Below are positions 9,738-39,526 of a stretch of DNA of 64,000 nucleotides, in pieces. Source of the stretch: an uncultured Desulfobacterales bacterium. GTDB lineage: Bacteria; Desulfobacterota; Desulfobacteria; Desulfobacterales; CAJINA01. The stretch's first letter is position 1; every line of letters begins with the position of its first letter. Made by a program: the position numbers and the translations under genes. Below the pieces are notes generated by a model. It ran no database searches and was not told the DNA's origin. It worked only from the letters and a program-made list of their open reading frames with translations. The DNA is taken from positions 7,241 through 71,240 of the forward strand of contig CAZWPX010000004.1 of NCBI GenBank assembly GCA_964636125.1, read 5' to 3'.

Positions 9738-9739
9738 TG

Positions 9740-9924: not shown

Positions 9925-9990
9925 TTTGGCCGGCCGGTATTTCCAATCCAATTTATTGCGGCAGCATCTTGTTGATGTGAGGAGAAGAAA

Positions 9991-10668: not shown

Positions 10669-10674
10669 ATATGT

Positions 10675-10846
10675 GTATCCGCTCACAAACGGCATTTTTT
10701 GGCCCAGGGCGGCGTTAGCGCTCTTTTGAAATCCTCAACATAGTCTCGACTATGCCTGCGGCTTCAAAATCGCTTAAGCCTTGCACCACGATAGGCACTT
10801 GCTTCGCGACGCTCTGAACCAAAAACTACCATTTGTGAGCGAATAC
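10675..10846. mobile_element. ERIC-like miniature inverted-repeat element with nested 26-bp insert
   Basis: About 28-bp imperfect terminal inverted repeats GTATCCGCTCACAAACGGCATTTTTTGG / CCAAAAACTACCATTTGTGAGCGAATAC; internal GCGTT...CATAGTC-TC-GACTATG...GCCTTG. Confidence 0.65.
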
Positions 10847-10869
10847 TTTAACAACTAAAAATTTCGGGA

Positions 10870-12264: not shown

Positions 12265-12380
12265 AGAGAGGGCACTGCCGGCTGTCATGCTAAATAGGCA
12301 GAGTGACAGGAAAAATAATAAGCGCCGGTAACCATGGCCACGGGTCTTGATGCTGGTTTTTTTTCAGGGTATTGGGGATC

Positions 12381-19229: not shown

Positions 19230-20567
19230 ATGACTGAATCAGAAAGCCAGGCAGAACAACAGATTTTTGACCAGGCGACCGAAGCCGGCCTTGCGAAACT
19301 GACCGAAGAAAAAATCCAGCAGGTAATCAATAATGTTTTGCAAGGGGAGACCGGCGCCAGGCTGAAGACATACGTTCAGACCTGCATCCATTGCGGGCTC
19401 TGTTCGGAGGCTTGTCACTACTACCTCTCCCATGATAATGACCCTGCGTTTTCACCGGTTGGAAAAGTCAAACAGACCCTGTGGGAAATCCTGAAAAAGA
19501 AAGGGCGGGTCAGTCGTGATTTTGTCAGGTGCATGACCAGAATTGCCCAGACCGAGTGCAATTTGTGTAAGCGCTGCGCCATGTATTGCCCCTTCGGTAT
19601 CGATATTGCCTATCTCATGCTTGTGGTCAGGCGCATGTGCCACCTGCTTGGTGTTACGCCACGCTACATCCAGGATACCGCCCACAGCCATTCAGTGACC
19701 ATGAACCAGATGTGGGTCAAACCGGATGAGTGGCCGGACACCTTGCAGTGGCAGGAAGAAGAAGCCCAGGCTGAAATTCCTACTTTGCGGATTCCCCTTG
19801 AAAAAGAAGGGGCGGATATCATGTATTCCGTTATCGGCCCCGAGCCCAAATTCCAGGCCCAGCTGATTTACCAGGCGGCCGTTATCATGGATGTGGCCGG
19901 GGTAAACTGGACCATGCCGGCTTCTTCGGGGTGGGACAACAGCGACATGGCCATGTTTACCGGGGATAATGAATTGATGGGGCGTATGAAGCGGCACCAT
20001 TTTGAAACCGCCGCCCGGTTGAAGGTCAAGAAAATTGTCATGGGAGAGTGCGGGCACGCTTTCCGGTCTGTATACGATGTGGGCAACCGCTGGCTGGGCT
20101 GGAAAATGCCGCCCATACCCATTGTGCATGCCATCGAGTTTTACTACGATCTTATCAAGTCCGGAAAAATCAAGATCAAAAAGAAATTCGAAAAACCGGT
20201 CACCCTGCACGACCCCTGTAATGTGGTGCGCGGGGGCGGGTTGCATGAGAAGGCCAGATACGTTGTCAGGGCGATTTGCGAAGAGTTGATTGAAATGCAT
20301 CCCAACCGGGAACACAATTATTGCTGCATCGCCGGGGGGGGGGTCATCAATTGCGGCCCGCCCTATAAAAAAACCCGGATGGAGGGCAACAAGGTGAAGG
20401 CGGAGCAGCTCTTTGAGGTGAAAACAAGAGGCGCAGATGTACTGATCGCCCCCTGTCATAACTGTCACAGCGGTCTTGAGGATATCAACCACCACTTTGG
20501 AATCGGGCAGGAAATCAAATTCATCGGTGATATCATTTATGAAGTCATGGAAAAACCGGAAGCATAA
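19230..20567 (+). CDS. tmcB: Tmc complex HdrD/DsrK-like Fe-S subunit
   Basis: CIHCGLCSEAC, CNLCKRCAMYCP, GECGH, HDPC, CCIAGGG, APCHNC. Confidence 0.9.
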   Translation: MTESESQAEQQIFDQATEAGLAKLTEEKIQQVINNVLQGETGARLKTYVQTCIHCGLCSEACHYYLSHDNDPAFSPVGKVKQTLWEILKKKGRVSRDFVRCMTRIAQTECNLCKRCAMYCPFGIDIAYLMLVVRRMCHLLGVTPRYIQDTAHSHSVTMNQMWVKPDEWPDTLQWQEEEAQAEIPTLRIPLEKEGADIMYSVIGPEPKFQAQLIYQAAVIMDVAGVNWTMPASSGWDNSDMAMFTGDNELMGRMKRHHFETAARLKVKKIVMGECGHAFRSVYDVGNRWLGWKMPPIPIVHAIEFYYDLIKSGKIKIKKKFEKPVTLHDPCNVVRGGGLHEKARYVVRAICEELIEMHPNREHNYCCIAGGGVINCGPPYKKTRMEGNKVKAEQLFEVKTRGADVLIAPCHNCHSGLEDINHHFGIGQEIKFIGDIIYEVMEKPEA

Positions 20568-20582
20568 CAGGAGGGGCGCCAA

Positions 20583-20963
20583 ATGGGAAACCGCATAATC
20601 ATTATCGCTTTGATCGGTCTGATTTCCGTGTCGCTGCTTACCACCGCGTTTTCCCAGGAAGAGATGGTGGTGGTGGACAATAGTGCGTTTGACGATGTCC
20701 GGCGGTCACCGGCCGCATTTGTACATGATGCGCATAACGAGAAGGCCGGGATTGAAGAGTGTTTTGAGTGCCACCATGTTTATGAAGATGGGAACCTGGT
20801 TGAAGATGAATCCTCAGAGGATCAGAGCTGCTCGGATTGTCATGAGCTTGAATCTTCAGGCAGCATGCCCGGCTTGATGAAGGCTTTTCATCAAAATTGC
20901 AAAGGGTGCCACCAGAGAGAAAAATCGGGTCCGGTGATGTGTGGCGAGTGTCATAAAAGATAA
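20583..20963 (+). CDS. tmcA: acidic tetraheme cytochrome c3 (type II) TmcA
   Basis: Signal peptide; four CxxCH motifs (CFECH, CSDCH, CKGCH, CGECH); strongly acidic. Confidence 0.92.
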
Positions 20964-26928: not shown

Positions 26929-27198
26929 ATGCGACTGGAATCAAAACCGGTATATCGAAGGGTCATCTCACCCTGGTATGATTCCGAAACGGTCTGTTTC
27001 GGTGTCATTATATTGATGCTGATAGTCCTTGTTTTTGCCATCACGGGGATCTCCGTGGCCGGAAGTCATCCGGTCTGGGGTACCCATATGTGGGTTCCGG
27101 GATTGCTCGCCGGCCTGAGCACCTGGGTCCTGATTACGACTTCCCTGCGGCTGGTCCGGCGGTTGCTGGACAGGCATTCGGATGAATCCAGCCTTTAG
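26929..27198 (+). CDS. small two-TM membrane protein
   Basis: GGAGG SD before ATG 26929; MRLESKPVYRRVISPWYDS followed by two hydrophobic helices. Confidence 0.7.
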   Translation: MRLESKPVYRRVISPWYDSETVCFGVIILMLIVLVFAITGISVAGSHPVWGTHMWVPGLLAGLSTWVLITTSLRLVRRLLDRHSDESSL

Positions 27199-27355
27199 GG
27201 CCGCGGGAAAAAAATAATTACACATCTTGCTTGTCTTTTGGTCCGTCTGCTGCGTTACATCCACCGGTACATATCCTGATATGCACCGGTGGATCTGCCT
27301 TGCTGACGAACCAAAATCCGGCGCAATCTTGCGCAATTATTTTTTTCCGAGGCCC
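27198..27355. mobile_element. 158-bp ERIC-like MITE, copy A
   Basis: Terminal inverted repeats GGGCCGCGGGAAAAAAATAATT / AATTATTTTTTTCCGAGGCCC; TTA on both flanks; near-identical inverted copy at 55109-55265. Confidence 0.85.
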
Positions 27356-27406
27356 TTAGTTCCTAACTCGTGTCCATTGAGAGAGCCAATTATAAATAAG
27401 ACCTGC

Positions 27407-27817
27407 CTACTGCGGGAGGAAAGAGAGAATTTTCAGAAACATGTCGGGGGGAATGTAACCGGACCGGTTTCCAAAAGGCTTGCCGTCCGGTTGTATGAAC
27501 CAGGTGGTCGGCAGGTAGTAGACCTTGTACATGGCGGCGATCTGCCGTTCTGAGTCCACGTTCACTTTGACGGGGATGTACTGGTTGTTAAGGGCTGTGA
27601 CCACCCGGGTGTCTTTCCAGGTGCTTTTTTTCATCTCTGCGCAGGCCGGGCAGGTGTCGGAATAAAAATAGATCACCAGGGGTTTGCCTGCCTGTTTACT
27701 ACGGGCCAGGCCGTCATTGAATTTCAGCCACCGAATGGTTTCCGGCGGATTGGTCCCGGAGGCTGCGGCCGCCCAGAAAAGGGCGATCAGGAGAATGGAC
27801 AGGCCGATCTTTTGCAT
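27407..27817 (-). CDS. exported thioredoxin-fold protein (SoxW/DsbD-gamma-like)
   Basis: Signal peptide; CPAC; cis-Pro motif YLPTTWF. Confidence 0.85.
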   Translation of the reverse strand: MQKIGLSILLIALFWAAAASGTNPPETIRWLKFNDGLARSKQAGKPLVIYFYSDTCPACAEMKKSTWKDTRVVTALNNQYIPVKVNVDSERQIAAMYKVYYLPTTWFIQPDGKPFGNRSGYIPPDMFLKILSFLPQ

Positions 27818-27824
27818 TTGAAGT

Positions 27825-28529
27825 TTACCCCGCTGTCATCAGGAGACTTAATTTGTTGGTCAGTAAAAGGATACCCATGGCCATGAGCAGTATGCCGGCG
27901 GCTATGTTGACGACCCTGACTGCTTTTCTGGCCTTTTGCAGGAACTTTAGTAGATAATTGATAAAAAAGGAAAGGGCTAAAAAAGGGATGGCCAGGCCCG
28001 TGGAATATACAGCCAGCAGGGCGGCCCCCTGCCAGAGGGTCTCGCGGCTGCCGGCAAGAATCAGGATTGATCCGAGCTGTGGTCCCATGCACGGACTCCA
28101 CCCGGCGGCAAAAGCCATGCCGATGAGGAAAGCACCCAGGACGTGCAGGGGCTTTTTCTGCAGGTGTATGCGGCCTTCGTAATTCAATATGGAAAAGCTG
28201 TAGAGGCCGCTGGTGTGGATACCGAAAAGCAGGATCAGGATGCCGCCGGTAATCCGAATGATGTCTCTGTAGTTGTGGGCCAGGCTGCCGATCAGGGAGG
28301 CCGAGGTGCCCAGGGCAATAAACACGGTTGAGAACCCGAGTACGAAGGCCGCCGTGGAAAAGACGACCTTGCGACGGACTGCCAGGCTGCTGCGGGCCGT
28401 AAGTTCTTCCGTTGAATAGCCGGTTATAAAACTGAAGTAGGCCGGCAGCAGCGGCAGGATGCACGGAGAAAAAAAGGAGAGCAGGCCGAAAAGAAAGGCC
28501 GCTGGATAGGGAACATTTTCAACCAGCAT
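27825..28529 (-). CDS. ccdA: cytochrome c biogenesis protein CcdA
   Basis: GLLSFFSPCILPL and GWSPCMGP; about 6 TM helices. Confidence 0.92.
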   Translation of the reverse strand: MLVENVPYPAAFLFGLLSFFSPCILPLLPAYFSFITGYSTEELTARSSLAVRRKVVFSTAAFVLGFSTVFIALGTSASLIGSLAHNYRDIIRITGGILILLFGIHTSGLYSFSILNYEGRIHLQKKPLHVLGAFLIGMAFAAGWSPCMGPQLGSILILAGSRETLWQGAALLAVYSTGLAIPFLALSFFINYLLKFLQKARKAVRVVNIAAGILLMAMGILLLTNKLSLLMTAG

Positions 28530-29004
28530 TTCTCAATACCCCGTTTGGTGGCAGTTTTTGGTTCTGGGCCGGCCGGCCCGCTTCAATCCAGAACAGCCAG
28601 AGGCCGGCGGCCAGCAGACCGAAGTTGCGTACAAAGGAGATGGCCGCATTCCGGCCGGCATCCGGAGACATCGAAAAACATCCGCAATTGACATCCAGCC
28701 CTCGAAAATAGTTTAAACCGGCGGCCAGCAAAAAGACAATCAGGAGCAGATCGACGGTGAGCACCGCGCCGGGGACCAGGCGGCCGCACAGCAGCAGCAG
28801 GCCGCACAGGCATTCGACCCAGGGCAGTATCAAGGCAACTGCATTCACGGCTCCCCGGGGAAGTATGTCATAGTTGTCTACAATTACGGCAAAATCTGCT
28901 GGGTTCAGCAGTTTGTCCCAACTGGCCCATATGAAAATCAGGCCCAGTCCGGTTCGCACCAGCAGGTAACAGGTTTTTTGGATTGATACAAGGGTCGGTT
29001 TCAC
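28519..29004 (-). CDS. MauE/DoxX-family membrane protein
   Basis: FIWASWDK, LPWVE, GLDVNCGCF. Confidence 0.85.
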   Translation of the reverse strand: MKPTLVSIQKTCYLLVRTGLGLIFIWASWDKLLNPADFAVIVDNYDILPRGAVNAVALILPWVECLCGLLLLCGRLVPGAVLTVDLLLIVFLLAAGLNYFRGLDVNCGCFSMSPDAGRNAAISFVRNFGLLAAGLWLFWIEAGRPAQNQKLPPNGVLRNAG

Positions 29005-29009
29005 TGGGA

Positions 29010-29858
29010 TTACTTCCCGTTTTCACCAAAATGTTTAATCATCAGGTCACCCAGTTCCTTGGACCGCAGGGTGGCGGCTTCCACAGCATTTATCATGGTC
29101 GTGCGCAGGCCGCCCTTTTCAAGGGTATGCAGGCCGGCGATGGCTGTCCCGCCCGGTGAGGTAACCGAATCCTTGAGCGGCCCGGGATGCTCTCCGGTTT
29201 CCAGAAGCAGTTTAGCGGCACCATAGATGGTCTGGGAAGCCAGCAGCAATGCATCCTGCCGGGCCAATCCCACCTTGACACCGGCATCTGCAAGGGCGTC
29301 CACAATCATGAAGATATAGGCGGGTCCGCTGCCGCTTAAACCGGTAATCGCATCCATCAGGTTGTTTTCTTTTAAGAAGATACATTTTCCGACAGAGTTG
29401 AAAATGGCCATGGCCAGATCAATATCCTCTTTTTTGGTGTGCTCCCCGGCGGCAATGGCTGCGGCGCCCTCGCGAACCGCCACGGCCACATTAGGCATTA
29501 CGCGAATGAGGCGCAGGTCCTTGTTCAGGCAGGCTTCGATGGCGGCCAGGGGAACACCGGCGGCAATGGAGATGACAATTTTTGATAGATCGAGGCACTC
29601 TTTGATTTCCTGCAGGACCGGCACCATGATCTGGGGCTTGATGGCCAGAATGACAATGTCCGTCTGGGTGGCGACTTCTGTGTTGCTGGTGGAGACCTGT
29701 ACACCGAATTTCGTGTTGATTTCCTGCAGCGTGTCCTCGCGGACATCGGAACAGTAGATGTTCTCTGGTTTGGAAGCGCCCGAGTTGATCAGGCCACTGA
29801 TCATCGCTTCGCCCATGTTGCCGGAGCCGATAAAACCGATTTTCTTGTCATTTAGCAT
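29010..29858 (-). CDS. proC: pyrroline-5-carboxylate reductase
   Basis: GFIGSGNMG, AIKPQ, RVMPN, GLSGSGPAY, VTSPGGTAI. Confidence 0.96.
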   Translation of the reverse strand: MLNDKKIGFIGSGNMGEAMISGLINSGASKPENIYCSDVREDTLQEINTKFGVQVSTSNTEVATQTDIVILAIKPQIMVPVLQEIKECLDLSKIVISIAAGVPLAAIEACLNKDLRLIRVMPNVAVAVREGAAAIAAGEHTKKEDIDLAMAIFNSVGKCIFLKENNLMDAITGLSGSGPAYIFMIVDALADAGVKVGLARQDALLLASQTIYGAAKLLLETGEHPGPLKDSVTSPGGTAIAGLHTLEKGGLRTTMINAVEAATLRSKELGDLMIKHFGENGK

Positions 29859-29988
29859 TAAAGTGCCTCCCCGCATCCTGCAAATTATATGATTCTATTT
29901 ATCCTGCTAATAATTCCAAACAGTTAAATTAAGAACCCCATGCAATTTAGTCAAGGAAATAATGCTGCCCTCCGTGTAAAAAACGGTC

Positions 29989-30036
29989 TTGACAGTTGAT
30001 TTAAAATGAGATTTATAATGGTTTAACCATTATAAA
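29989..30036 (+). promoter_or_regulatory. promoter with perfect palindromic operator (FadR/GntR-like)
   Basis: TTGACA at 29989 and TATAAT at 30014 (19-bp spacer, long); perfect 12-1-12 palindrome TTTATAATGGTT-T-AACCATTATAAA at 30012-30036. Confidence 0.75.
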
Positions 30037-30135
30037 AGAACAGCCGTGCCGGGCCGTGTCCATCGGGGCGTCTTTGCGCCGCCTGCGGGCCTGCTCCGGG
30101 TGCATTTACCGAAACAGCAAGCGTGGATGTCTTAT

Positions 30136-32235
30136 ATGAACCAGAAGCGAATTGAGCATCATCCGGTTTTAGCGCAGCCGGAGCGAAAATCAGTGACTTT
30201 CAGCTGGAACGGGCGGGATCTTAGCGGGTTTGAAGGTGAAATGATCTCCTCGGCCCTGTTTGCCAACGGTGTCCAGGTTTTTGGCCGCCACCACAAGGAC
30301 CGCAGCCCCCAGGGGATGTTTTGCGCCAATGGGCAGTGTTCGCAATGCCTGGTAATTGTCGACGGCCTGCCGGTGAAATCCTGCATGACCCCTCTGGCCG
30401 CGGGGGCGCAGGTTGAGCCCGTGGACGGTCTTCCGCAGATACCGGCCCAGGACGATCAGATTGAATTGGGTGACGTGTTGACCCGGACGACGGATGTACT
30501 CATCATTGGGGGCGGACCGGCGGGACTTTCAGCGGCCGTTGAGCTCGGCAAGCTGGGCATCGAAACCCTGGTCGTGGATGACAAGGATCGCCTGGGGGGC
30601 AAACTGGTTTTGCAGACCCACAAGTTTTTTGGTTCCGTTGAAGATTCGTATGCCGGTACCCGGGGCTACCGGATTGCCCAACTGCTGGAAGAGCAGCTCG
30701 AGCACTATCCGTGCGTGCGGGTCTGGCTCGAAGCCACCGCGGTGGGTGTGTTTTCCGACCGGATTGTCGGTATTGTGAAAGGCAGCCGGTACCACAAGAT
30801 CAGGTCCCGGAAACTGCTGGTGGCCACCGGCGCCAGGGAGAAGATGCTCTCTTTTCCCGGAAACACCCTGCCGGGCGTATACGGCGCCGGTGCTTTCCAG
30901 ACCCTGGTGAATCGTGATCTGGTTAAGTGTTCGGATCGGGTCTTAATTGTCGGCGGAGGCAACGTCGGGTTGATTGCCGGTTATCACGCGATCCAGGCGG
31001 GCATAGAGGTTGCCGCCCTGATTGAAGCCCTGCCGGCGGTAGGGGGGTACAAGGTCCATGCTGATAAACTGTTGCGGTTGGGAGTCCCCATTTATACCGG
31101 GCACACTGTGGTGTCGGCCAACGGTTCCGACCGGGTGGAATCGGTCACCATCGCGAAACTGGACAGTGACTGGCGCCAGGTCCCCGGCACCCGGCGTACG
31201 TTTGAAGTCGATACGGTCTTGATTGCCGTCGGCCTGTCCAGGGTAGATGAATTTTACTTCAAGGCCAGGCAGTGGGGCATGGATGTCTACGCTGCCGGGG
31301 ATGCACAGGAAATTGCCGAGGCCTCCGCCGCCATGTTTACCGGAAAAATAGAGGGCCTGAAAATTGCAAAAGCCCTCGGTCGGTTCGGTGGCGAAATTCC
31401 GCCCCAGTGGGATGAGAAAGCCCGGGTCCTCAAGTCAAAGCCGGGCGTTCCGGTGACCAGAGAGCTGGGCGGACCCGAAAATGGGGTGCGGCCGGTGTTT
31501 CACTGTTTTCAGGAAGTGCCCTGCAACCCTTGTACATCAGTTTGTCCTGAAAATATCATCAAAACGGACCAAGATGAGATCACCGGGCTGCCCTATTGCA
31601 GTGATGCCGACGCCTGCCAGGGCTGTATGGCGTGTGCCGCCATATGCCCGGGGCTGGCCATTACCATGGTGGACTACCGCAAGGATCCTGAGCACCCGGT
31701 GGTGACGCTGCCCTACGAAATCTGGCGGGACCGGGTTGAGAAGGGGCAGACCATCGAGGTGACCGACGATGGCGGGGCGGTGCTCGCCGCGGTTCCGGTT
31801 AAGCGGGTGGTGGCCAACCGGAAAAAATATCCGGGTACCCTGCTGGTCCAGGTCCGGGTGCCCGTGGCGATTGCCACGCGGGTTATCGGTATTCGCATAC
31901 AGGCGGAACTTGCAGCTGAACCGGCGGAACTGTACACCCGCGAGCCGCTGCCGGATGAAGCCGTGATCTGCCGGTGTGAGCGGATAACGGCTGGAGAAAT
32001 ACGGGCGGCCATTGCCGGCGGCGTCCGGGACATGAATCAGCTCAAGGCCCTGAATCGGGCCGGAATGGGGGCCTGCGGGTCGAAAACATGCCGGACCATG
32101 ATCTGGCGGATTTTTCAGGAAGAGGGCGTTGACTTTGGTGAAGTGACCGACCGGGTGGACCGGCCGCTCTTTGTGGAAGTGCCCATGGGAATCCTGGCTG
32201 GTGCGGGTGGAGGTGCAGATGATGGATGCATATGA
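30136..32235 (+). CDS. multidomain FAD/Fe-S oxidoreductase (sarcosine oxidase alpha / proline dehydrogenase / HcnAB-like fusion)
   Basis: [2Fe-2S] FCANGQCSQC...KSC; GGGPAG and GGGNVG Rossmann motifs; 2x[4Fe-4S] CNPCTSVCP and CQGCMACAAICP; BFD-like ICRCE...GACGSKTC. Confidence 0.85.
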   Translation: MNQKRIEHHPVLAQPERKSVTFSWNGRDLSGFEGEMISSALFANGVQVFGRHHKDRSPQGMFCANGQCSQCLVIVDGLPVKSCMTPLAAGAQVEPVDGLPQIPAQDDQIELGDVLTRTTDVLIIGGGPAGLSAAVELGKLGIETLVVDDKDRLGGKLVLQTHKFFGSVEDSYAGTRGYRIAQLLEEQLEHYPCVRVWLEATAVGVFSDRIVGIVKGSRYHKIRSRKLLVATGAREKMLSFPGNTLPGVYGAGAFQTLVNRDLVKCSDRVLIVGGGNVGLIAGYHAIQAGIEVAALIEALPAVGGYKVHADKLLRLGVPIYTGHTVVSANGSDRVESVTIAKLDSDWRQVPGTRRTFEVDTVLIAVGLSRVDEFYFKARQWGMDVYAAGDAQEIAEASAAMFTGKIEGLKIAKALGRFGGEIPPQWDEKARVLKSKPGVPVTRELGGPENGVRPVFHCFQEVPCNPCTSVCPENIIKTDQDEITGLPYCSDADACQGCMACAAICPGLAITMVDYRKDPEHPVVTLPYEIWRDRVEKGQTIEVTDDGGAVLAAVPVKRVVANRKKYPGTLLVQVRVPVAIATRVIGIRIQAELAAEPAELYTREPLPDEAVICRCERITAGEIRAAIAGGVRDMNQLKALNRAGMGACGSKTCRTMIWRIFQEEGVDFGEVTDRVDRPLFVEVPMGILAGAGGGADDGCI

Positions 32236-33373
32236 TGTCATAATAGTGGGTGCCGGTTCCCTGGGGGTCCCTACTGCGATGGCCCTTGGGCAGGTCGGGG
32301 CCCGGGTACTGGTGGTGGATGCCAAGCCATCTCCCGGCCAGGGCGAAAACAAACACGCTATCGGCGGTATCCGGGCCACTCATTCCACCCCGGGCAAAAT
32401 CCTTTGCGGACTGCGATCACTGGAAATCTTTTCTACCTGGCAGCCTGCCCATGGCGATGACATCGAGTGGCAAAAAGGCGGCTACCTCTTCCCGGTTTAT
32501 CGACCCCAGGAGGAAAATGCCTTGAAGCGCATCCTGCCCATCCAAAAACAATACGGCCTCAAGATTAAGTATGTCGGGCCCGAGGTGGTTGTTGCGCAGA
32601 TACCGGGGATCGTGACCACCGGCCTGAAAGGCGGAACCTTTTCCCCGGACGATGGTTCCGCCTCACCCCTGCTGGCCATCAACGCGTTTTACCGCCAGGC
32701 CCTGGTGCATGGGGTCACCTTCCGGTTCAAAGAGAAGATACACAGGCTGATCACCCGCCGCGGTCGGGTGACCGGGATTGAAACTGACCTTGGCAAAGTT
32801 GAGGCCCCGGTGGTTGTGGATGCCGCGGGCGCCTATTCAAGGCCATTGGGAAAAACGGCCGGGATCGACATACCAGTTATTCCGGATTCCCACGAAGGCG
32901 CTATCACCGAGCCGGTGCAGCCCTTTTTTAAAACCATGGTGGTGGACTTGCGCCCCGGTGAAGGTTCCTTGAACTACTATTTTTACCAGAACCGGCATGG
33001 ACAGGTGGTTTTCTGCATCACGCCCGATCCGCCAATCGTAGGCACCGATCACCGGGAGACCTCGGTCTTTTTACCCCAGGTTTGCCGACGGATGGTGTCC
33101 CTGGTCCCCCGGCTGAAAAATATCAGGGTACGTCGGGTCTGGCGAGGTCTTTACCCCATGTCACCGGACGGGGCTCCGCTGGTGGGCTGGAACGGTCGCA
33201 TCAACGGTCTTTTTCATGTGACCGGCATGTGTGGACAGGGCTATATGCTCGGACCCGGGATCGGTGAGGTAGCCGCCCGGGAGATCACAGGCAGTCCCCG
33301 TGACGGGGATGAGGTGATTCTGAAAGAGTTCTCTCCGGAGCGGCACTTTGGCGGGGAGGAAGCACTCAAGTAG
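32219..33373 (+). CDS. DAO-family FAD-dependent amino-acid oxidoreductase (sarcosine oxidase beta / proline dehydrogenase beta-like)
   Basis: IIVGAGSLG, VVDAAGAYS, WRGLYPMSPDG, GMCGQGYMLGP; overlaps the upstream gene; GGAGG SD. Confidence 0.85.
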   Translation: MMDAYDVIIVGAGSLGVPTAMALGQVGARVLVVDAKPSPGQGENKHAIGGIRATHSTPGKILCGLRSLEIFSTWQPAHGDDIEWQKGGYLFPVYRPQEENALKRILPIQKQYGLKIKYVGPEVVVAQIPGIVTTGLKGGTFSPDDGSASPLLAINAFYRQALVHGVTFRFKEKIHRLITRRGRVTGIETDLGKVEAPVVVDAAGAYSRPLGKTAGIDIPVIPDSHEGAITEPVQPFFKTMVVDLRPGEGSLNYYFYQNRHGQVVFCITPDPPIVGTDHRETSVFLPQVCRRMVSLVPRLKNIRVRRVWRGLYPMSPDGAPLVGWNGRINGLFHVTGMCGQGYMLGPGIGEVAAREITGSPRDGDEVILKEFSPERHFGGEEALK

Positions 33374-33468
33374 CCCCGGGCAGCATGTACGGCGCTGGCT
33401 GGACACAGAAATCGCGGCAGGTGCCATTTTTTCGTACCGGGCGGCGGGCGTTCGTGGTATGGAATGAA

Positions 33469-33540
33469 CTATGTTCAGCGTTCCCCGTTCAGAGGTTAAA
33501 CTCAGGAACCAGAACACTGAACACGGAACGCCGAACATAG
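33469..33540. repeat. hairpin built from heptamer repeats
   Basis: CTATGTTCAGCGTTCCCCGTTCAG pairs with CTGAACACGGAACGCCGAACATAG; 7-nt periodic GTTC/GAAC units. Confidence 0.7.
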
Positions 33541-33565
33541 ACCTAACTTTCAAGGAGTAGATAAT

Positions 33566-35707
33566 ATGGCAGAATTAGAAACAACCACCCTGAAAAAACT
33601 GACTTACCAGCGGCCGACGATTGCAAAGGGTTACGCCAACCAGACCCTGCATGTCAATCTTTCCGATGCGGCCATAGCCATCGAACCCATATCCGCAGAT
33701 ATGAAAAACCTGTTTGTGGGCGGCAAAGGCTTCGACTTGTGGCTCTTATGGAATGCGGTCACCGGCAATACCCGCTGGAACGACCCTGAAAATGCCGTCT
33801 GTATCGCCAGCGGCCCCATGGGCGGTACGCCGGGGTATCCCGGTTCGGGGAAAAGTATTGTAACCGCCCTGTCGCCCCTGACCGGTTCCGTGGTGGATTC
33901 CAATGTCGGCGGGTATTTCGGTCCTTATCTCAAGTTTGCCGGGTTTGATGCCCTGGAGATTACCGGCAAGGCCGCCGGAGACACCGTTGTCCTGATTGAT
34001 GGCATCGCTGAAAAAATCGAAATTCTTGAGATGCCGGGCCTGACCGACGATTCCTACGCACTCTCCGCCCTCTTGACGGATCATTTCGGGCAGGGACAAA
34101 ATAGCCATATTTCAGTGGTTTCCAGCGGTCCCGGTGCAAAAAACACCCGATTCGGATGCCTGAATTTTACCTGGTATGACGGCAAGCGCAAGATGAGCCG
34201 TTACAAGCAGGCCGGCCGCGGCGGGCTCGGTTCGGTGTTTGCGGACAAGGGCATCAAGGCTGTCGTTGCACGCTGGGATTCGGTTTCCCTGAAAACCAAT
34301 AATCCGGATAATTTCGAAAACTTGAAAACAGTGCAGAAACTGTACGCCAAAGAGATCGTCACCCTGGATCCCAAACAGAACAAGATGGCGTCGATCGGGA
34401 CCACGCACCTTGTGCCGATTATGAATGATTTTGACCTGCTGCCCACCCATAATTTCAAATTCGGCCAGCATGTCGGCGGCAACCTCATCGGCAGTGAAGT
34501 TTTTCAGCACCTTTTTGACAAGGGGTTTGACGGGTGCTGGCGCGGCTGCACGGTGGCCTGTTCCCACGGCGTCAGGGATTTTGTACCGTTTACCGGTTCT
34601 TACCGGGGCCAGAAGGTATTCGTGGATGGGCCCGAGTATGAAACCATTGCCGGTTGCGGTTCAAACCTGGGCATTTTTGATCCTTCCACGATCCTGGAAA
34701 TGAATTTTTACTGTGACACCTATGGGCTGGATACCATTTCGGTGGGAACTTCCATTGCGTTTGTCATGGAGTGTTTCGAGATGGGGCAGATCACTACCGA
34801 ACATACCGGCGGCATGCAGCTGTACTTCGGCAATCGCCTGGAGGCCCTGGAACTGGTTCACCAGATGGCCCGGGGCGAGGGCTTCGGCGCCCTGGTGGGG
34901 CAAGGCATCCGGCGCATGAAAACACATTTTGCCCGGGAGTTCGGAGCAGCCGCAGATGTCCTCCAGGATATCGGTATGGAATCCAAAGGCCTCGAATTTT
35001 CAGAATATATGACCAAAGAGTCCCTGGCCCAGCAAGGTGGTTACGGGATGGCACTCAAAGGCGCCCAGCATGATGAGGCCTGGCTGATATTCCTGGATAT
35101 GGTTCATAACTTTATGCCCTCTTTTGAGCAGAAAGCGGAGGCGCTGCACTGGTTTCCCATGTTCCGGACCTGGTTCAGCCTCTGCGGTCTCTGCAAACTG
35201 CCCTGGAACGACATCGTACCCGAAGACAACAAGGACACGCCTGAGCCGGCCAAGGTAATGAAGCATGTAGATTGGTATGCGGACTATTTCACGGCGGTTA
35301 CCGGACGGCAGGTGGGAGCGGACGACCTGGTCGGTATGAGTGAATCGGTCTATAACTTCCAGCGTGTGTTTAACCTGAGAATGGGTTTCGGCCGCCGGCA
35401 GCACGACACGCTGCCTTACCGGGCGATGGGCCCGGTGACCGTTGAAGAATACGAATCCCGGGTGGAACGTTACGACAAGCAGCTGTTGGAAAAGCACGAT
35501 TTTGACCCCGCCGGCCTGCCCGTGGAAGAGCGGATGGCAGCTCTTAGAAAGTTTCGTGAGGACCAGTACGAGCAGCTCAAAGTGGCTGTTTATAAACGGC
35601 GCGGGTGGACTGAGGATGGTATTCCGACAGTGGCCACGGTGAAACGCCTGGGAATCGATTTCCCGGAAGTGCTGGCGGTGTTAGCTGAAAATGGGATCGA
35701 TGCATGA
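33566..35707 (+). CDS. aldehyde:ferredoxin oxidoreductase family (W/Mo-pterin)
   Basis: FVGGKG, SPLTG...DSNVGG, AGRGGLG, CWRGCTVAC, EYET, DTYGLDTIS, SLCGLC, YKRRGW. Confidence 0.9.
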   Translation: MAELETTTLKKLTYQRPTIAKGYANQTLHVNLSDAAIAIEPISADMKNLFVGGKGFDLWLLWNAVTGNTRWNDPENAVCIASGPMGGTPGYPGSGKSIVTALSPLTGSVVDSNVGGYFGPYLKFAGFDALEITGKAAGDTVVLIDGIAEKIEILEMPGLTDDSYALSALLTDHFGQGQNSHISVVSSGPGAKNTRFGCLNFTWYDGKRKMSRYKQAGRGGLGSVFADKGIKAVVARWDSVSLKTNNPDNFENLKTVQKLYAKEIVTLDPKQNKMASIGTTHLVPIMNDFDLLPTHNFKFGQHVGGNLIGSEVFQHLFDKGFDGCWRGCTVACSHGVRDFVPFTGSYRGQKVFVDGPEYETIAGCGSNLGIFDPSTILEMNFYCDTYGLDTISVGTSIAFVMECFEMGQITTEHTGGMQLYFGNRLEALELVHQMARGEGFGALVGQGIRRMKTHFAREFGAAADVLQDIGMESKGLEFSEYMTKESLAQQGGYGMALKGAQHDEAWLIFLDMVHNFMPSFEQKAEALHWFPMFRTWFSLCGLCKLPWNDIVPEDNKDTPEPAKVMKHVDWYADYFTAVTGRQVGADDLVGMSESVYNFQRVFNLRMGFGRRQHDTLPYRAMGPVTVEEYESRVERYDKQLLEKHDFDPAGLPVEERMAALRKFREDQYEQLKVAVYKRRGWTEDGIPTVATVKRLGIDFPEVLAVLAENGIDA

Positions 35708-35901
35708 TCACCGTGGACGGTAAAAAGCTAGCCTGGGAGCCTGAGATGACCGTTGCCAAACTGCTGGAACAGGTTGAAAAACCAGAGCAGTACGCGGTAA
35801 TACGACTCAACGGCAAGTTGGTTTCCCGGCCGAATTTCAAGGGTACGCCGGTTCCCGCCGGGGCTGAGGTAGTCCTGATTCCCATGATCGCCGGGGGTTG
35901 A
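35704..35901 (+). CDS. ThiS/MoaD-like sulfur carrier
   Basis: 65 aa, ubiquitin-like, ends IAGG; ATGA overlap with the AOR gene. Confidence 0.88.
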   Translation: MITVDGKKLAWEPEMTVAKLLEQVEKPEQYAVIRLNGKLVSRPNFKGTPVPAGAEVVLIPMIAGG

Positions 35902-35942
35902 TACCCCGGGCAGCGCCCGCATAACCGCGTTCACCCAGTCTG

Positions 35943-35986
35943 AAAAAGCCTTTCCGGGCAGCCGCCTGCTCCCGTAAAGGCTTTTT
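35943..35986 (+). terminator. intrinsic terminator
   Basis: AAAAAGCCTTT...AAAGGCTTTTT hairpin after the thiS-like gene. Confidence 0.7.
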
Positions 35987-36079
35987 GCCCCTGCGCTATA
36001 ACTGGTGAAAATCCTTGACTTACCTGCGAGAATTACTTAGTTTTTTAAACCAAGGAAACAGATAGAAGGATCATTTTAT

Positions 36080-36379
36080 ATGTTCGTTATTGGTAATTTT
36101 CTTTACGCGCTGGCTGTGGTTGTTGATTATGCACTGACAATTTACCTGTGGGTTGTGATTGCCCGGGCCGTTCTTTCCTGGGTGAGCCCGGACCCATACA
36201 ACCCAATTGTCCGGTTTATTCACAATGTGACCGAACCGGTGCTCTATCGGATTCGTCGCTTGCTGCCTTTCGATTTAGGCGGTATCGACATTTCTCCTAT
36301 CATTGTGATGATGGCAGTGATTTTCCTTCAAAAGTTTCTGGTCGGCAGTTTGGTGGGCCTGTCCCGTACAATGATGTGA
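36080..36379 (+). CDS. yggT: YggT-family membrane protein
   Basis: LSWVSPDPYNPIV, TEPVL, GGIDISPI. Confidence 0.93.
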   Translation: MFVIGNFLYALAVVVDYALTIYLWVVIARAVLSWVSPDPYNPIVRFIHNVTEPVLYRIRRLLPFDLGGIDISPIIVMMAVIFLQKFLVGSLVGLSRTMM

Positions 36380-36407
36380 CCGCTTGCCGGTCCAAAAGGT
36401 GCCTTAC

Positions 36408-36911
36408 ATGGATATCACCCCGCTTGACATACAGAATCGACAGTTTAAGGTTAAGTTCAGGGGCTTTGATGTAAAAGAGGTGGATGCTTTCCTGGAGCAG
36501 GTGGCGGAGACCGTCGGAACACTGGCGGAAAATGTTCAGCGCCTGGATCGGGCTCTTGAGCGCAGCCAGCGGGAAGTGAGCGCTTACCGGGAGCGCGAGG
36601 AGACCTTCAAAACCGCACTGGTAAATTCACAGACCGTCATGGAGCAGATGAAAGGTAATGCCAAGAAATCGGCGGACCTGATCATTGCAGATGCGGAGGT
36701 GAAAGCCGAAAAGCTGTTGCAGCGCGCACACAAAAGACTTTCTCAACTGCATGAAGACATCTCCGAACTCAAGCGGCAGCGGCAGCAGATTGAGTCGCAG
36801 ATACAGTCGATTATCGAAACACACACCAAAATCCTGGAAACCGGCAAAGAAGAAATGAAAGCTCATGACGAGCAGGATGATAGACTGCAGTTGTTAAATT
36901 TTCCAAGATAA
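36408..36911 (+). CDS. divIVA: DivIVA-domain protein
   Basis: ITPLDIQNRQFKVKFRGFDVKEVDAFL followed by coiled coil. Confidence 0.9.
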   Translation: MDITPLDIQNRQFKVKFRGFDVKEVDAFLEQVAETVGTLAENVQRLDRALERSQREVSAYREREETFKTALVNSQTVMEQMKGNAKKSADLIIADAEVKAEKLLQRAHKRLSQLHEDISELKRQRQQIESQIQSIIETHTKILETGKEEMKAHDEQDDRLQLLNFPR

Positions 36912-36923
36912 GCCTTTCCCGCA

Positions 36924-37111
36924 GAGGCTGTGTCAGAATGCCCAAATTGGTCTCAGGCTAAGGAAAGCGCAAATTTTCCCGAAGCGGGACTTCCCGCCTG
37001 ATTGATTACATTTGGTGGGTCGTATCCGAAGGAATACATTGAGTATTTCGAGGGTTTAAATTTCCGCCTGACCCCGGGATGGGGCCAAAGGGGGGATTGT
37101 GACACGGTCTC
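36924..37111. mobile_element. degenerate miniature inverted-repeat element
   Basis: Imperfect terminal inverted repeats GAGGCTGTGTCAGAAT / ATTGTGACACGGTCTC; GCA on both flanks; internal AATAC-attga-GTATT hairpin. Confidence 0.55.
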
Positions 37112-37225
37112 GCAGGACCCGTACAAAACAGAGTTGCCAGAAAGTGCCCGCCTTGCGTGCGGCCATGGTCAATACACATGCGTGGTCAACCCTTAAACCT
37201 TTCGGTTGAATTTGGGAGAATTTAA

Positions 37226-38308
37226 ATGGCAAAAATAGATGCGTTTTTCAAGCTGATGAATGAGCAGGGGGCTTCCGACCTCCACATGGTTTCCGGTCAG
37301 CCCCCCGCACTCCGGCTGATGGGAGAGATTGAAAGAATTAAATACAAGACCCTGACCAACGATGAACTCAAAGCCATGCTCTACGAAATCGCGCCGGAAG
37401 ACAAGGTCAAGGTTTTTGAAGAAACCGGGGATGTGGATTTTGGTTACGAGATTCCAGGCCTGGCCCGGTACCGGGCCAACTTTTTCATGCAAAAGTATGG
37501 CGTGGCCGCGGTTTTCAGGGAAATCCCCAGTACGATCCTGACGGCCGAGCAGCTCGGCCTGCCGCCAGTTATCTCCAAACTGGCCAGCCTGCCCAGGGGG
37601 CTTTGTGTGGTGACCGGTCCCACGGGCAGCGGCAAATCGACCACCCTGGCGGCGATCATAGACGTGGCCAATAAAACCCGCAAGGACCACATCATTACCG
37701 TTGAAGACCCGGTCGAATTTGTGCACAAGAGCCAGGCCTGCATCATCAACCACCGGGAAGTGGGGATGCACACGAAAACCTTCAGCGCGGCTTTAAAAGG
37801 GGCTCTGCGTGAAGACCCCGATGTTATTCTGGTGGGCGAAATGCGTGACCTGGAAACTATCTCCCTGGCCATTGAAGCCGCCTCCACCGGTCATCTGGTT
37901 TTCGGCACCCTGCATACCTCCAGCGCCATGAAAACCGTGGACCGGATTATCGAAGTCTTCCCGTCCAGCGAGCAGGCCCAGATTCGCAGCACCCTTTCCG
38001 ACGGCATCCGGGCGGTTGTGGCCCAGGTACTGTTTAAACGGATCGACAAGAAGGGCCGCGTACCGGCCATGGAAATCATGATTGCCACCTCGGCTGTCCG
38101 GAACCTGATCCGGGAAGGTAAAACCCACCAGATATCGTCATCGATTCAGACCGGGAAAAAATATGGTATGCAGCTGCTGGATGATGCCATTATGGATCAT
38201 TTGAATGCCGGCCGGATCGATCCGGATGAAGCCTATATGAAATCCAATGAGAAGGGACGCTTCAGGCCGTTTTTGAAAAACCCGCCCACGGATTTTACCG
38301 ACGCATAA
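37226..38308 (+). CDS. pilT: type IV pilus retraction ATPase PilT
   Basis: GASDLH, GPTGSGKSTT, TVEDPVE, ALREDPDVILVGEMRD, GTLHT, AVRNLIREGK. Confidence 0.93.
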   Translation: MAKIDAFFKLMNEQGASDLHMVSGQPPALRLMGEIERIKYKTLTNDELKAMLYEIAPEDKVKVFEETGDVDFGYEIPGLARYRANFFMQKYGVAAVFREIPSTILTAEQLGLPPVISKLASLPRGLCVVTGPTGSGKSTTLAAIIDVANKTRKDHIITVEDPVEFVHKSQACIINHREVGMHTKTFSAALKGALREDPDVILVGEMRDLETISLAIEAASTGHLVFGTLHTSSAMKTVDRIIEVFPSSEQAQIRSTLSDGIRAVVAQVLFKRIDKKGRVPAMEIMIATSAVRNLIREGKTHQISSSIQTGKKYGMQLLDDAIMDHLNAGRIDPDEAYMKSNEKGRFRPFLKNPPTDFTDA

Positions 38309-38359
38309 TATCCGGATGCCGCACAACCTGCCGGACCACCGGAGCAAAGGGGTACGACC

Positions 38360-39526
38360 ATGAGAAAACAGGAAGTTGATCACATACTGGCCCGCATGCT
38401 GGATTCCTTTGACAATGTGTCAGACCTGAATATCACCGCAGGCAAGGCTTTTCAGGTGGAAAGTTCGGGGCAATTGACACCGGTGGACATGCAGCCGGCG
38501 TTCACCGAATTGACCCCCTTCCAGACAGAAATTTTCTCCCTCAACCTGGTCAACCAGGATCGGCGGCTCACCGAGACCCTGCTGATCGAAGGGTCCTGCG
38601 ACTGCAGCTATGACCTGCCGGGCAAGGCCCGCTTTAGGGTCAATATCTTTTCCCAGTTGAGCAATTATTCGATTGTCCTTAGAAAACTTGAAAGCAAGAT
38701 TCCCACCATTACGGATATGCAGCTGCCGGGGCCGTTTTTGCAGATGGCCGAGGAGAAAAACGGGATTATTTTCATTACCGGTTCAACCGGCAGCGGTAAA
38801 ACAACCTCCCTGGCGGCGGTTTTAAATGAAGTCAATGAAACGAAATCCGTTCATATCGTGACTCTGGAAGATCCGGTGGAATACCAGCACCCGCACAAGA
38901 AATCCACCTTCAACCAGCGGGAAATGGGCAATGATTTTGACACTTTTGCCAGCGGTTTGCGGGCTGCCCTGCGCCAGGCGCCCAAGGTGATCCTGGTGGG
39001 GGAGATGCGTGACCGGGAGACGGTTGAAATCGGGCTCAGCGCCGCCGAGACCGGGCACCTGGTTTTAAGCACCCTGCATACCGTGGATGCCGGGCAGACC
39101 ATCAACCGTATCCTCGGCATGTTCCCTACAGAGGAGGAAAACCAGATCCGGATCAGGCTTGCCGACACGGTGCGCTGGATTGTGTGCCAGCGTCTGCTGC
39201 CCAAAGTGGGCGGCGGGCGGGCGGCTGCTTTTGAAATCATGGGCACCAATCTGCGGGTCAAGGACACCATTTTGCAGGGAGAATCGGAAGGCAAAACCTT
39301 TTATGAGATTATCGACGCCGGTGAAGCCTTCGGGATGACAACCTTTGATAAACATATTGTTGGGCTGTACAGAAAGGAATTGATTACCGAAGAGACAGCC
39401 ATGGCCTATGCGTCACGCCAGGGCATTGTGGGCCGGGGCCTGGATATGGTCAAGGCTGATCGCGGTGAAGCGACCACTGATATCGAAGACCTCCAGGTGG
39501 ATCGCACCTATGGCAAGAAAAAATGA
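38360..39526 (+). CDS. PilT/PilU-family ATPase paralog
   Basis: GSTGSGKTT, TLEDPVE, ALRQAPKVILVGEMRD, STLHT. Confidence 0.88.
   Translation: MRKQEVDHILARMLDSFDNVSDLNITAGKAFQVESSGQLTPVDMQPAFTELTPFQTEIFSLNLVNQDRRLTETLLIEGSCDCSYDLPGKARFRVNIFSQLSNYSIVLRKLESKIPTITDMQLPGPFLQMAEEKNGIIFITGSTGSGKTTSLAAVLNEVNETKSVHIVTLEDPVEYQHPHKKSTFNQREMGNDFDTFASGLRAALRQAPKVILVGEMRDRETVEIGLSAAETGHLVLSTLHTVDAGQTINRILGMFPTEEENQIRIRLADTVRWIVCQRLLPKVGGGRAAAFEIMGTNLRVKDTILQGESEGKTFYEIIDAGEAFGMTTFDKHIVGLYRKELITEETAMAYASRQGIVGRGLDMVKADRGEATTDIEDLQVDRTYGKKK

Follow-up and report, generated by a model that had tools for sequence, protein, structure and literature searches.

The dye-linked dehydrogenase of L-proline (L-ProDH), D-hydroxyproline dehydrogenase, opine dehydrogenase and hydrogen cyanide (HCN) synthase belong to one family of heteromeric enzymes, which is marked by two cysteine motifs (C-x4-C-x2-C-x11-12-C and C-x-C-x15-20-C-x4-C), two ADP-binding motifs and an Arg-X-Trp motif that is the putative FMN site of the beta subunit (as set out in the accessible part of PMC4575208). 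According to the same part of that source, a type-2 opine dehydrogenase lies near the L-ProDH subfamily of the archaea and is inactive on L-proline. The L-ProDH gene clusters of the Thermococcales associate with genes of the proline racemase and OCD families (accessible part of PMC4141209). Here, we analyze an operon at positions 30012 to 35986 of a 64,000-nt stretch of DNA from an uncultured Desulfobacterales bacterium ("the window", to which all plain coordinates refer), in which two genes of this family are followed by one for an enzyme of the aldehyde:ferredoxin oxidoreductase (AOR) family and one for a small ThiS/MoaD-like protein. With moderate confidence, and judging from the sequence, we read this operon as a repressor-controlled unit of proline catabolism, in which genes 1 and 2 would make pyrroline-5-carboxylate (P5C) and the AOR would oxidize glutamate semialdehyde to glutamate with ferredoxin.

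The genes were defined by open reading frames (ORFs) together with Pfam and NCBIfam profile scans. Four plus-strand genes lie between a perfect 12-1-12 palindrome and a terminator-like hairpin, and proC is transcribed divergently from them. The overlapping pairs are genes 1/2 (17 nt) and genes 3/4 (4 nt), and genes 2 and 3 are set apart by a 192-nt spacer that holds a long hairpin. The palindrome, TTTATAATGGTT-T-AACCATTATAAA, occupies 30012..30036, and its 12-nt arms are 100% complementary. It overlaps the TATAAT -10 box (30014-30019) of a plus-strand, promoter-like element that was read from the sequence, with TTGACA at 29989-29994 and a 19-nt spacer; a simple promoter scan, which allowed spacers of 16-18 nt, did not call it. 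A first-pass annotation, made from the sequence alone, had proposed four co-oriented genes in two overlapping pairs, bounded by a palindromic operator and a terminator and divergent from proC, and had assigned their domains; ORFs, folds and profiles confirm the arrangement, the domain calls prove right, and the operator is borne out by the comparison with relatives that follows.

The core of the palindrome, AATGGT-N3-ACCATT, occurs once in the window and is weak evidence by itself, because 20 of 100 shuffled sequences also matched when one mismatch was allowed. The comparison used the best 80 of at least 582 loci with relatives of gene 1 (53-73% identity, one genome per species scanned), which come mostly from Desulfobacterales metagenome-assembled genomes and include Desulfosarcina alkanivorans PL12 and Desulfocicer vacuolatum. 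A gene for a GntR/FCD regulator stands directly 5' of gene 1 in 54 of the 80 loci, the window itself being without an adjacent regulator gene. Upstream of the gntR-gene 1 pair, TGGT-N3-ACCA is found in 51 of these 54 loci, always inside AATGGT-N3-ACCATT, and this retention ahead of the homologous operon argues that the palindrome is a real element.

Which other genes are preceded by the same site? The sharing of the operator across related genomes is, among sequence-based arguments, what we take as the decisive evidence for a place of the AOR in a proline regulon. A search of 15 related genomes for the exact core found 31 sites, against 8 for the reversed pattern that served as control, and 16 of the 31 stand directly upstream of five gene types: AOR, gene 1, gntR, Pro_dh and putP-like. 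The site lies directly 5' of the AOR in genomes G418, G422, G372 and G367, of gene 1 in G372 and G367, of gntR in G451, G576, G548 and G565, of a gene for a 303-aa Pro_dh-family proline dehydrogenase in G422, G553, G558 and G565, and of a gene for a PutP-like symporter in G558 and G553. Both symporters are 77-78% identical to the protein of locus L041, which passes the PutP equivalog model (552 bits vs cut-off 515.5) and whose gene opens the series putP - AOR - Pro_dh - gntR - gene 1 - gene 2 - ATP-binding cassette (ABC) transporter. In G548, the gntR behind the site is followed by a PutA-length ORF. G422 has only two exact sites, upstream of the AOR and of the Pro_dh gene, and no gene 1 at E 1e-150; here the Pro_dh product would supply the AOR substrate in place of genes 1-2. 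Moreover, the AOR and genes 1-2 of G367 and G372 lie on different contigs, both of which carry the identical site AATGGTTTAACCATT. Because the exact operator is common to AOR, gene 1, Pro_dh, putP and gntR, the AOR appears to belong to a proline-utilization regulon.

A genome of the same genus, G418, offers a simpler version of the locus. Genes 1-2 are absent from it, and the promoter-operator arrangement of the window (TTGA(C/T)A...TATAATGG) lies about 150 nt upstream of its AOR. The leader of that AOR aligns with the 5' half of the window's gene 2-AOR spacer, to which the window adds a hairpin of about 70 nt. In this genus AOR-thiS would therefore be an operator-controlled unit, with genes 1-2 inserted into, or deleted from, its leader.

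The palindrome is the predicted binding site of a GntR/FCD (FadR-type) regulator encoded elsewhere in the genome. The best candidate is on contig C2, where the closest homologue of the regulator in the window's genome (50% identity) heads a LIV-type amino-acid ABC transporter operon and has a one-mismatch site after TTGACA upstream. Such a regulator would bind the palindrome over the -10 box and be released by an inferred effector ligand. The window copy is the only exact operator site in this genome. Two one-mismatch sites at C30:28321 and 28390 (locus L186) were rejected, being part of a lactate-utilization cluster (GlcD/LdhH-type) with an LldR-like GntR gene, and one at C77:22454, which falls inside an ORF, was rejected as well; related FadR-type regulators here have very similar half-sites. 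On contig C30 of the same genome (G000:C30:11678-18170, locus L097), a paralogous GntR/FCD gene with the variant palindrome AATGGGTGACCCATT upstream heads an operon that comprises genes for ornithine aminotransferase and two carbamoyltransferases, one gene like that of carbamate kinase and an unassigned 445-aa ORF, an ornithine/citrulline catabolic unit that also yields glutamate semialdehyde.

Gene 1 (30127..32235, plus strand, from Pfam and the translation) encodes a fused alpha-type subunit of 702 aa. Since Fer2_4 begins at residue 48 of the long ORF, which is open from 30046, translation likely starts at the ATG at 30127 or at the alternative at 30136. From the N-terminus, the protein has a Fer2_4 [2Fe-2S] domain (85 bits), the Pyr_redox_2/Pyr_redox FAD and second dinucleotide Rossmann folds, a 2x[4Fe-4S] insert and a Fer2_BFD [2Fe-2S] domain (43.6 bits); residues from about 540 to 610, between the insert and the BFD-like end, have no domain assigned. 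The Fer4_7 match to the dicluster insert is weak (24.1 bits, under the Pfam cut-off of 27) but is backed by its eight cysteines, C460/466/469/473 and C497/500/503/507, all of which are invariant in 42 orthologues. The same holds for all 16 cluster cysteines, for both GxGxxG motifs and for the intact second dinucleotide site (GGGNVG ... E300). The N-terminal cluster motif, C66-x4-C71-x2-C74-x11-C86, fits the family motif Cys-X4-Cys-X2-Cys-X11-12-Cys, and the second one, the invariant C615-x-C617 ... C650-x4-C655, has a middle spacer of 32 residues against the 15-20 of the family, as given in the accessible part of PMC4575208. The solved relatives of gene 1 are SoxA (2GAG_A, E 2.7e-24) and PH1363 (1Y56_A, E 5.4e-21), and its product has no folate-binding domain.

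Gene 2 (32219..33373, plus strand; ribosome-binding site GGAGGTG) encodes the catalytic beta-type subunit, a flavoprotein of the DAO family (188.5 bits; the PF01266 match spans residues 22-370 of the long ORF). An N-terminal ADP-binding motif, VGAGSLG, is of the Gly-X-Gly-X2-Gly type, and the Arg-X-Trp motif would be the R-V-W within IRVRRVWRGLYP, matched by motif alone and not by its place in the published alignment (both motifs as given in the accessible part of PMC4575208). Genes 2 and 3 were placed by E-values against solved chains. The L-proline dehydrogenase of Pyrococcus horikoshii provides the nearest solved relative of gene 2, its beta subunit (1Y56_B, E 1.9e-42), and the next matches are dimethylglycine dehydrogenases and glycine oxidases (4.8e-18 or weaker) and SoxB (3e-11). 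The NCBIfam matches are all sub-threshold (D-amino-acid dehydrogenase 102 bits, ThiO 97.5, SoxB 87). By these likenesses, L-proline is most likely the substrate of genes 1-2. Genes 1-2 are also present, at 68-70% identity to their bacterial counterparts, on contigs that were assigned to Thermoplasmatota archaea in binning (L059, L066 and L069), beside an amino-acid-kinase gene and without an AOR; this reflects either recent transfer or mis-binning.

Gene 3 (33566..35707, plus strand) encodes an AOR-family, tungstopterin-type oxidoreductase of 713 aa with both family domains (AFOR_N, PF02730, 165.2 bits; AFOR_C, PF01314, 334.6 bits). When aligned to 1AOR it keeps C324-x3-C328-x3-C332, GPEYE and GLDTIS, all invariant in the 42 orthologues, with the fourth Cys ligand falling in a stretch that did not align; the corresponding 1AOR residues are taken as [4Fe-4S] cluster ligands, catalytic Glu and pterin-binding motifs. 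The enzyme is about 100 residues longer than 1AOR (residues 482-569 are unaligned), and its orthologues have a mean column identity of 81%. Its matches among solved enzymes are Pyrococcus furiosus AOR (1e-51), FOR (6e-46), Aromatoleum AorB (3e-40), WOR5 (6e-29) and BamB (3e-22), and by these comparisons it falls in none of the characterized clades of the family. In the genome, 13 match pieces of the AOR family fall at 11 places, about ten copies in all, and nine paralogues align to gene 3 at 25-29% identity, 29% being the maximum.

Gene 4 (35704..35901, plus strand) encodes a ThiS/MoaD-family protein of 65 aa (PF02597, 38.9 bits; TIGR01683, 40.8 bits vs cut-off 37.45) that ends in ...MIAGG, with a Gly-Gly terminus, and is translationally coupled to the AOR through an ATGA overlap. 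The genome has three ThiS-family genes, one of which lies near another AOR paralogue on contig C49. The MoaD-like aorD/aorE genes of the aor operon have been proposed as tungsten-cofactor maturation factors (accessible part of PMC6365974). By analogy, gene 4 probably encodes a maturation factor for a tungstopterin cofactor and stands outside the chemistry of the pathway, so that its early assignment as a ThiS/MoaD carrier stands as to family and is better replaced as to role.

The genes also keep company over a wide range of genomes. Gene 2 follows gene 1 in 73 of the 80 loci; five of the seven exceptions are at a contig edge and two (L046, L054) are not. In the 42 loci flanked on each side by at least 5 kb, we found gene 2 in 40, AOR in 30 (28 of them downstream on the same strand), ThiS behind the AOR in 27, proC in 23 and a GntR/FCD gene in 34, and the expected conservation of the AOR beside the dehydrogenase genes is thus seen in most of them. 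Six 18-kb loci (L012, L029, L033, L056, L060 and L063) hold the block of genes 1-2 and AOR without any proC, yggT, divIVA or pilT, which argues that the block moves as a unit. Among 301 genomes of the class, which as kin are not independent samples, an AOR orthologue (at least 68% identity) occurs in 96 and gene 1 in 58, and 55 of these 58 have both. To judge from sequence comparisons, the AOR-thiS pair is the older and wider unit than genes 1-2. Proline racemase-family genes follow gene 2 in four loci, and OCD/Pyr2C-reductase-family genes adjoin genes 1-2 in L024 and L053, more weakly in L060 and L080. In L053 (Desulfatiglandales), gene 2 and the AOR are separated by a second, divergent DAO-family gene (11573-12787, about 25% identical to gene 2), an arrangement reminiscent of the 'subunit exchange' that has been described for the two beta subunits of opine dehydrogenases. 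The sequences themselves show the gene content, the motifs, the conservation of the operator, membership in the regulon and phyletic co-occurrence.

We infer from them a pathway, including both substrates, the direction of the AOR reaction, its metal, the electron acceptor and the effector. Genes 1 and 2 would form a heteromeric Fe-S flavoprotein whose beta subunit oxidizes an imino acid, most likely L-proline, to P5C. The electrons would travel via FAD (perhaps FMN) and, in the fused alpha subunit, four Fe-S clusters to an acceptor, and this chain of clusters would allow either ferredoxin or NAD(P) in that role. P5C would open spontaneously to glutamate-gamma-semialdehyde, which the AOR-family enzyme would oxidize to glutamate while reducing ferredoxin, doing the job of a P5C dehydrogenase, and the ThiS/MoaD-like protein would serve pterin cofactor maturation. 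Glutamate-gamma-semialdehyde, the open form of P5C, is the only aldehyde of proline catabolism; considering that the AOR appears in a proline regulon, we read it as a glutamate semialdehyde (P5C):ferredoxin oxidoreductase.

The enzyme complement of the window's genome supports this assignment by way of a pathway hole: P5C is formed, with no recognizable P5C dehydrogenase to consume it. The enzymes besides genes 1-2 that form P5C are HypD (1274 bits vs cut-off 1100), ornithine aminotransferase (557 vs 378) and a stand-alone 303-aa Pro_dh-family protein. We found no PutA fusion and no P5C dehydrogenase equivalog in this genome, in which neither NF002852 nor TIGR01236 has a match at E 1e-90; the four Aldedh proteins of catabolic type reach at most 274.5 bits against P5C dehydrogenase cut-offs of 648-660, and the fifth Aldedh match is proA. 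The label 'PutA-independent' that the operon was first given is half right, since a PutA fusion is absent and a stand-alone Pro_dh gene is present. The glycyl-radical trans-4-hydroxy-L-proline dehydratase HypD adjoins GntR/FCD, OCD-family and proline racemase-family genes (G000:C2:60076-65476, locus L099) in a second proline/hydroxyproline cluster that yields P5C.

Several results weigh against proline catabolism through genes 1-2 and the AOR. The partnership of the genes is incomplete, as genes 1-2 occur without the AOR in 12 of the 42 full-flank loci and are inverted relative to AOR-thiS in L014, L016 and L026, and the AOR occurs without gene 1 in 41 of its 96 genomes. We looked among the relatives for phyletic complementarity of the AOR with PutA or P5C dehydrogenase and found none: in one family, 25 of 45 AOR-positive genomes and 10 of 16 AOR-negative ones encode a P5C dehydrogenase at the TIGR01236 level, and in other families PutA-length ORFs coexist with the AOR. 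Because both enzymes coexist in those 25 genomes, the AOR is no plain substitute for P5C dehydrogenase. Where the AOR lacks adjacent genes 1-2 (20 loci), the operator, with one mismatch allowed, is upstream of it in just five, and the tight proC-AOR-thiS arrays found at some of these loci suit reductive biosynthesis better than catabolism. Distant AORs (36-46% identity, 15 loci) have no proline-related neighbours. Adjacency to proC is itself weak evidence, because a backbone of pilT-divIVA-yggT, proC and dsbD is syntenic across the order, with or without genes 1-2; the operon's link to proC, which the first-pass annotation had raised, is thus largely a matter of this conserved backbone, although it recurs in other arrangements. 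Moreover, nearness to the archaeal L-ProDH leaves the substrate of genes 1-2 unfixed (by the accessible part of PMC4575208), and both L041 and the window's genome hold Pro_dh as well as genes 1-2, so that the latter might act on another compound.

This last point leads to the alternative that survives best, one that we regard as unlikely: the regulon and its logic would be the same, with genes 1-2 oxidizing some other imino or amino acid, the AOR oxidizing the matching aldehyde, and Pro_dh alone handling L-proline. Candidate substrates are D-proline, cis-4-hydroxy-D-proline, L-pipecolate, sarcosine or an opine-like N-alkyl amino acid, and candidate aldehydes are alpha-aminoadipate semialdehyde, alpha-ketoglutarate semialdehyde and formaldehyde. 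Besides the coexistence of Pro_dh with genes 1-2, the NCBIfam matches of gene 2, all sub-threshold, speak for it, and D-proline, hydroxyproline or pipecolate are suggested by the racemase-family (four loci) and OCD-family neighbours. L-Pipecolate is also a substrate of the archaeal L-ProDH, and for such clusters D-proline routes have been proposed (accessible part of PMC4141209); as noted, a close subfamily is inactive on L-proline (accessible part of PMC4575208). However, D-proline oxidation yields a keto acid and no aldehyde, for hydroxyproline an epimerase and a deaminase would be required, neither of which is in the block, and the alpha subunit lacks a folate-binding domain. The transporter of the regulon is PutP, with no other transporter family. 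Finally, the regulon pairs the AOR with Pro_dh in G422 and with genes 1-2 in G367 and G372, as expected if both feed the same AOR substrate. Of the three routes first put forward for the operon, proline is thus favoured by the likeness to 1Y56_B and by the operator shared with Pro_dh and PutP, with the substrate of genes 1-2 not fixed; the routes from sarcosine to formaldehyde and from glycine to glyoxylate have no supporting context in any locus examined.

Can proline catabolism be reconciled with the AORs that stand beside proC? At eight of the 20 AOR loci without adjacent genes 1-2, the genes read proC - AOR - thiS - dsbD, co-oriented and with gaps of tens of bases (L150-L156 and L168). In two others AOR-thiS is divergent from proC, in six it is the neighbour of a divergent yggT-divIVA-pilT, three have the AOR alone and one has AOR-thiS alone. 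The AOR also adjoins proC in L053 (OCD - gntR - gene 1 - gene 2 - second DAO - AOR - proC, no backbone) and in L147 (AOR - thiS - proC - HD - yggS-like). The proC-AOR-thiS-dsbD arrays come from two related families, with AOR identities of 71-74% (genomes G570, G396, G343, G504, G465, G458, G509 and G501). One tentative and rather unlikely answer is that the AOR clade is a tungsten-dependent, reversible glutamate/glutamate-gamma-semialdehyde:ferredoxin oxidoreductase, catabolic behind proline dehydrogenases and running backwards in the proC-AOR-thiS operons. Placed behind two unrelated kinds of proline dehydrogenase, the enzyme would turn the second step in the oxidation of proline into a source of low-potential electrons, and these might power the energetically unfavourable first step by way of the alpha subunit and its many clusters; a coupling of the two steps by confurcation is speculation. 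In the related families, the same enzyme would give an ATP-free route from glutamate to proline and so let some lineages lose proBA.

An improbable variant keeps only the biosynthetic half: the AOR would act mainly with ProC, in a ferredoxin-driven, ATP-free conversion of glutamate to P5C and proline that bypasses ProB and ProA, and genes 1-2 would be a later insertion with a separate role. The tight, co-oriented arrays just described and the loci L147 and L053 are what it would lead one to expect. Moreover, 15 of the 301 genomes lack proB and any full proA, and 11 of these 15 carry the AOR against a background of 96/301. Some enzymes of the AOR subfamily reduce acids, the Aromatoleum enzyme doing so very slowly and under forcing conditions (accessible part of PMC6365974). 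On the other hand, proA is present in 277 of the 301 genomes, including that of the window and 13 of 15 in the family with proC-AOR operons, and the window AOR lies behind a catabolic-type operator common to putP and Pro_dh genes. The loss of proBA in the 15 genomes may be real, although a single assembly gap removes both proB and proA, which are adjacent, and contig edges account for several of the apparent losses; such a loss could be explained just as well by ornithine routes (OAT, OCD), and the related genomes are not independent samples. Remnants of proA were seen at G357:C26:3154-3369 (72 aa) and G557:C157:6827-6925 (34 aa, two stops).

It is more doubtful still that AOR-thiS is a general aldehyde scavenger, sitting in a stable syntenic block by proC, to which the proximity of genes 1-2 adds no pathway meaning. 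The roughly ten AOR-family copies in the genome, the backbone around the AOR with or without genes 1-2, the 192-nt gap and hairpin before the AOR and the 12 full-flank loci that lack it all fit such a view. It does not account for an operator common to unlinked AOR and gene 1 (G367, G372) and to AOR and Pro_dh (G422), for the AOR of L041 between putP and Pro_dh, for the movement of the block into six backbone-free contexts, or for the AOR in 55 of the 58 genomes with gene 1. A last reading, in which genes 2 and 4 would serve thiazole (thiamine) synthesis as an anaerobic pair of ThiO and ThiS, was rejected as scarcely credible: gene 4 narrowly passes TIGR01683 and gene 2 matches ThiO at 97.5 bits, but this is far under the ThiO cut-off of 250.8, gene 4 is coupled to the AOR rather than to gene 2 and comes after the AOR at loci without genes 1-2 too, no thiG or thiF is found among window ORFs of at least 110 aa, and another ThiS-family gene is near the AOR paralogue on contig C49.

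The remaining features of the locus can be described briefly. The divergent proC (29010..29876, minus strand) encodes pyrroline-5-carboxylate reductase (TIGR00112, 291.5 bits vs cut-off 196.75) and is single-copy by tblastn of the whole genome. A terminator-like hairpin with a U-run closes the operon (35943..35986, plus strand; -36 kcal/mol, z -2.9, equalled by 0 of 200 shuffles); a simple terminator scan did not call it, its loop being too long for the scan, and the promoter and terminator counts of that scan are near the shuffle expectation. In the gene 2-AOR spacer, which folds with z -2.28 (4 of 200 shuffles fold as well), a long imperfect hairpin of about 70 nt with arms of 8+7+6 bp (33469..33540, plus strand) is missing, by alignment, from the homologous leader of G418, and could be an inserted repeat or an element of RNA processing or stability. 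An Rfam scan of 27000-39000 with E up to 1 gave two chance eukaryotic matches only and no riboswitch, such as that for the molybdenum cofactor (Moco), before the AOR. The leader from operator to gene 1 has no structure beyond shuffles (z +0.91), and the window AOR shows no sign of needing its own promoter. Elsewhere in the window (5857-12264 and 19230-20963) are two sets of genes for multihaem cytochrome c3-family, NrfD-like and HdrD-like (Fer4_8/CCG) proteins, interspersed with sensor kinases and response regulators, which are typical membrane redox complexes of sulfate reducers.

If proline catabolism by way of the AOR is correct, a textbook pathway has an unrecognized anaerobic version, in which a tungsten-pterin enzyme stands at the P5C dehydrogenase step and yields reduced ferredoxin. 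AOR-family enzymes, most bacterial copies of which have, to our knowledge, no assigned role, would gain a defined amino-acid substrate, and the use of proline, a common osmolyte, by abundant marine Desulfobacterales would be explained. There would also be a new GntR-type proline regulon with a clear operator and, for work on mechanism, a relative of the archaeal proline dehydrogenases that is bacterial, fused and rich in clusters. A direct test of the idea is possible, as a cultured organism, Desulfosarcina alkanivorans PL12 (locus L010), carries the full block.

How does the operon compare with systems already described? The closest is the dye-linked L-ProDH of the Thermococcales, as typified by the alpha4beta4 enzyme PDH1 of P. 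horikoshii (1Y56), with the beta subunit to which gene 2 is closest among solved chains and the alpha subunit PH1363, which matches gene 1. In the four-subunit archaeal L-ProDH (the alpha-beta-gamma-delta type of T. profundus), a ferredoxin-like protein is the separate gamma subunit. The overlapping genes, the [2Fe-2S] cysteines and the ADP-binding and Arg-X-Trp motifs are all found here (compared with the accessible part of PMC4575208), and the racemase- and OCD-family neighbours of the archaeal clusters (accessible part of PMC4141209) recur among the relatives of the window. Unlike the archaeal enzymes, the window system is bacterial, presumably mesophilic and under a GntR-type operator; in its fused alpha subunit, an additional ferredoxin-like 2x[4Fe-4S] insert separates the flavin domain from the BFD-like end; and its genes are coupled to an AOR-family gene, for which we found no parallel among the archaeal enzymes described in the open-access literature.

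With PutA, or the pair of PRODH and P5C dehydrogenase, the operon would share its chemistry, from proline through P5C/glutamate semialdehyde to glutamate, and in relatives the Pro_dh genes, putP and the gntR-putA pair of G548 use the same operator. The enzymes themselves are not homologous to the PutA domains. A DAO-family/Fe-S flavoprotein would carry out the first step, and the second would fall to a pterin (tungsten-type) enzyme that reduces ferredoxin, not to an NAD-dependent aldehyde dehydrogenase.

Among tungsten AORs (1AOR, FOR 1B25 and AorABC 8C0Z), gene 3 has the same AFOR_N and AFOR_C domains and keeps the cluster and pterin motifs in so far as they align, and the operon includes a MoaD-like gene, as the aor operon of Aromatoleum does with aorD/aorE (accessible part of PMC6365974). 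The Fe-S/FAD protein of gene 1 recalls the electron modules AorA and AorC but belongs to another family, and the block has no genes for an AorA-type polyferredoxin or an AorC-type FAD subunit. Unlike that of the known tungsten AORs, the context of gene 3 is one of amino acids, not of aromatic or sugar catabolism.

In D-hydroxyproline dehydrogenase, opine and HCN systems, a downstream aldehyde step, if there is one, uses an NAD(P) aldehyde dehydrogenase. D-hydroxyproline dehydrogenase (alpha4beta4gamma4), OdhABC/Oox/Nox and HcnABC are of the same heteromeric family, with the same plan of FAD, FMN and [2Fe-2S] (accessible part of PMC4575208). Unlike gene 1, whose N-terminus is the [2Fe-2S] domain, D-hydroxyproline dehydrogenase, OdhABC and HcnABC have it as a separate gamma subunit, and they are without the 2x[4Fe-4S] insert. 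As the first-pass annotation had supposed, we found in the open-access literature no pathway that joins an AOR or tungsten enzyme to proline dehydrogenase, P5C or glutamate semialdehyde, sulfate reducers and Desulfobacterales included. The parts of the operon are of known families, and its new elements are an AOR in a proline regulon, a fused, cluster-rich alpha subunit and a GntR/FCD proline operator.

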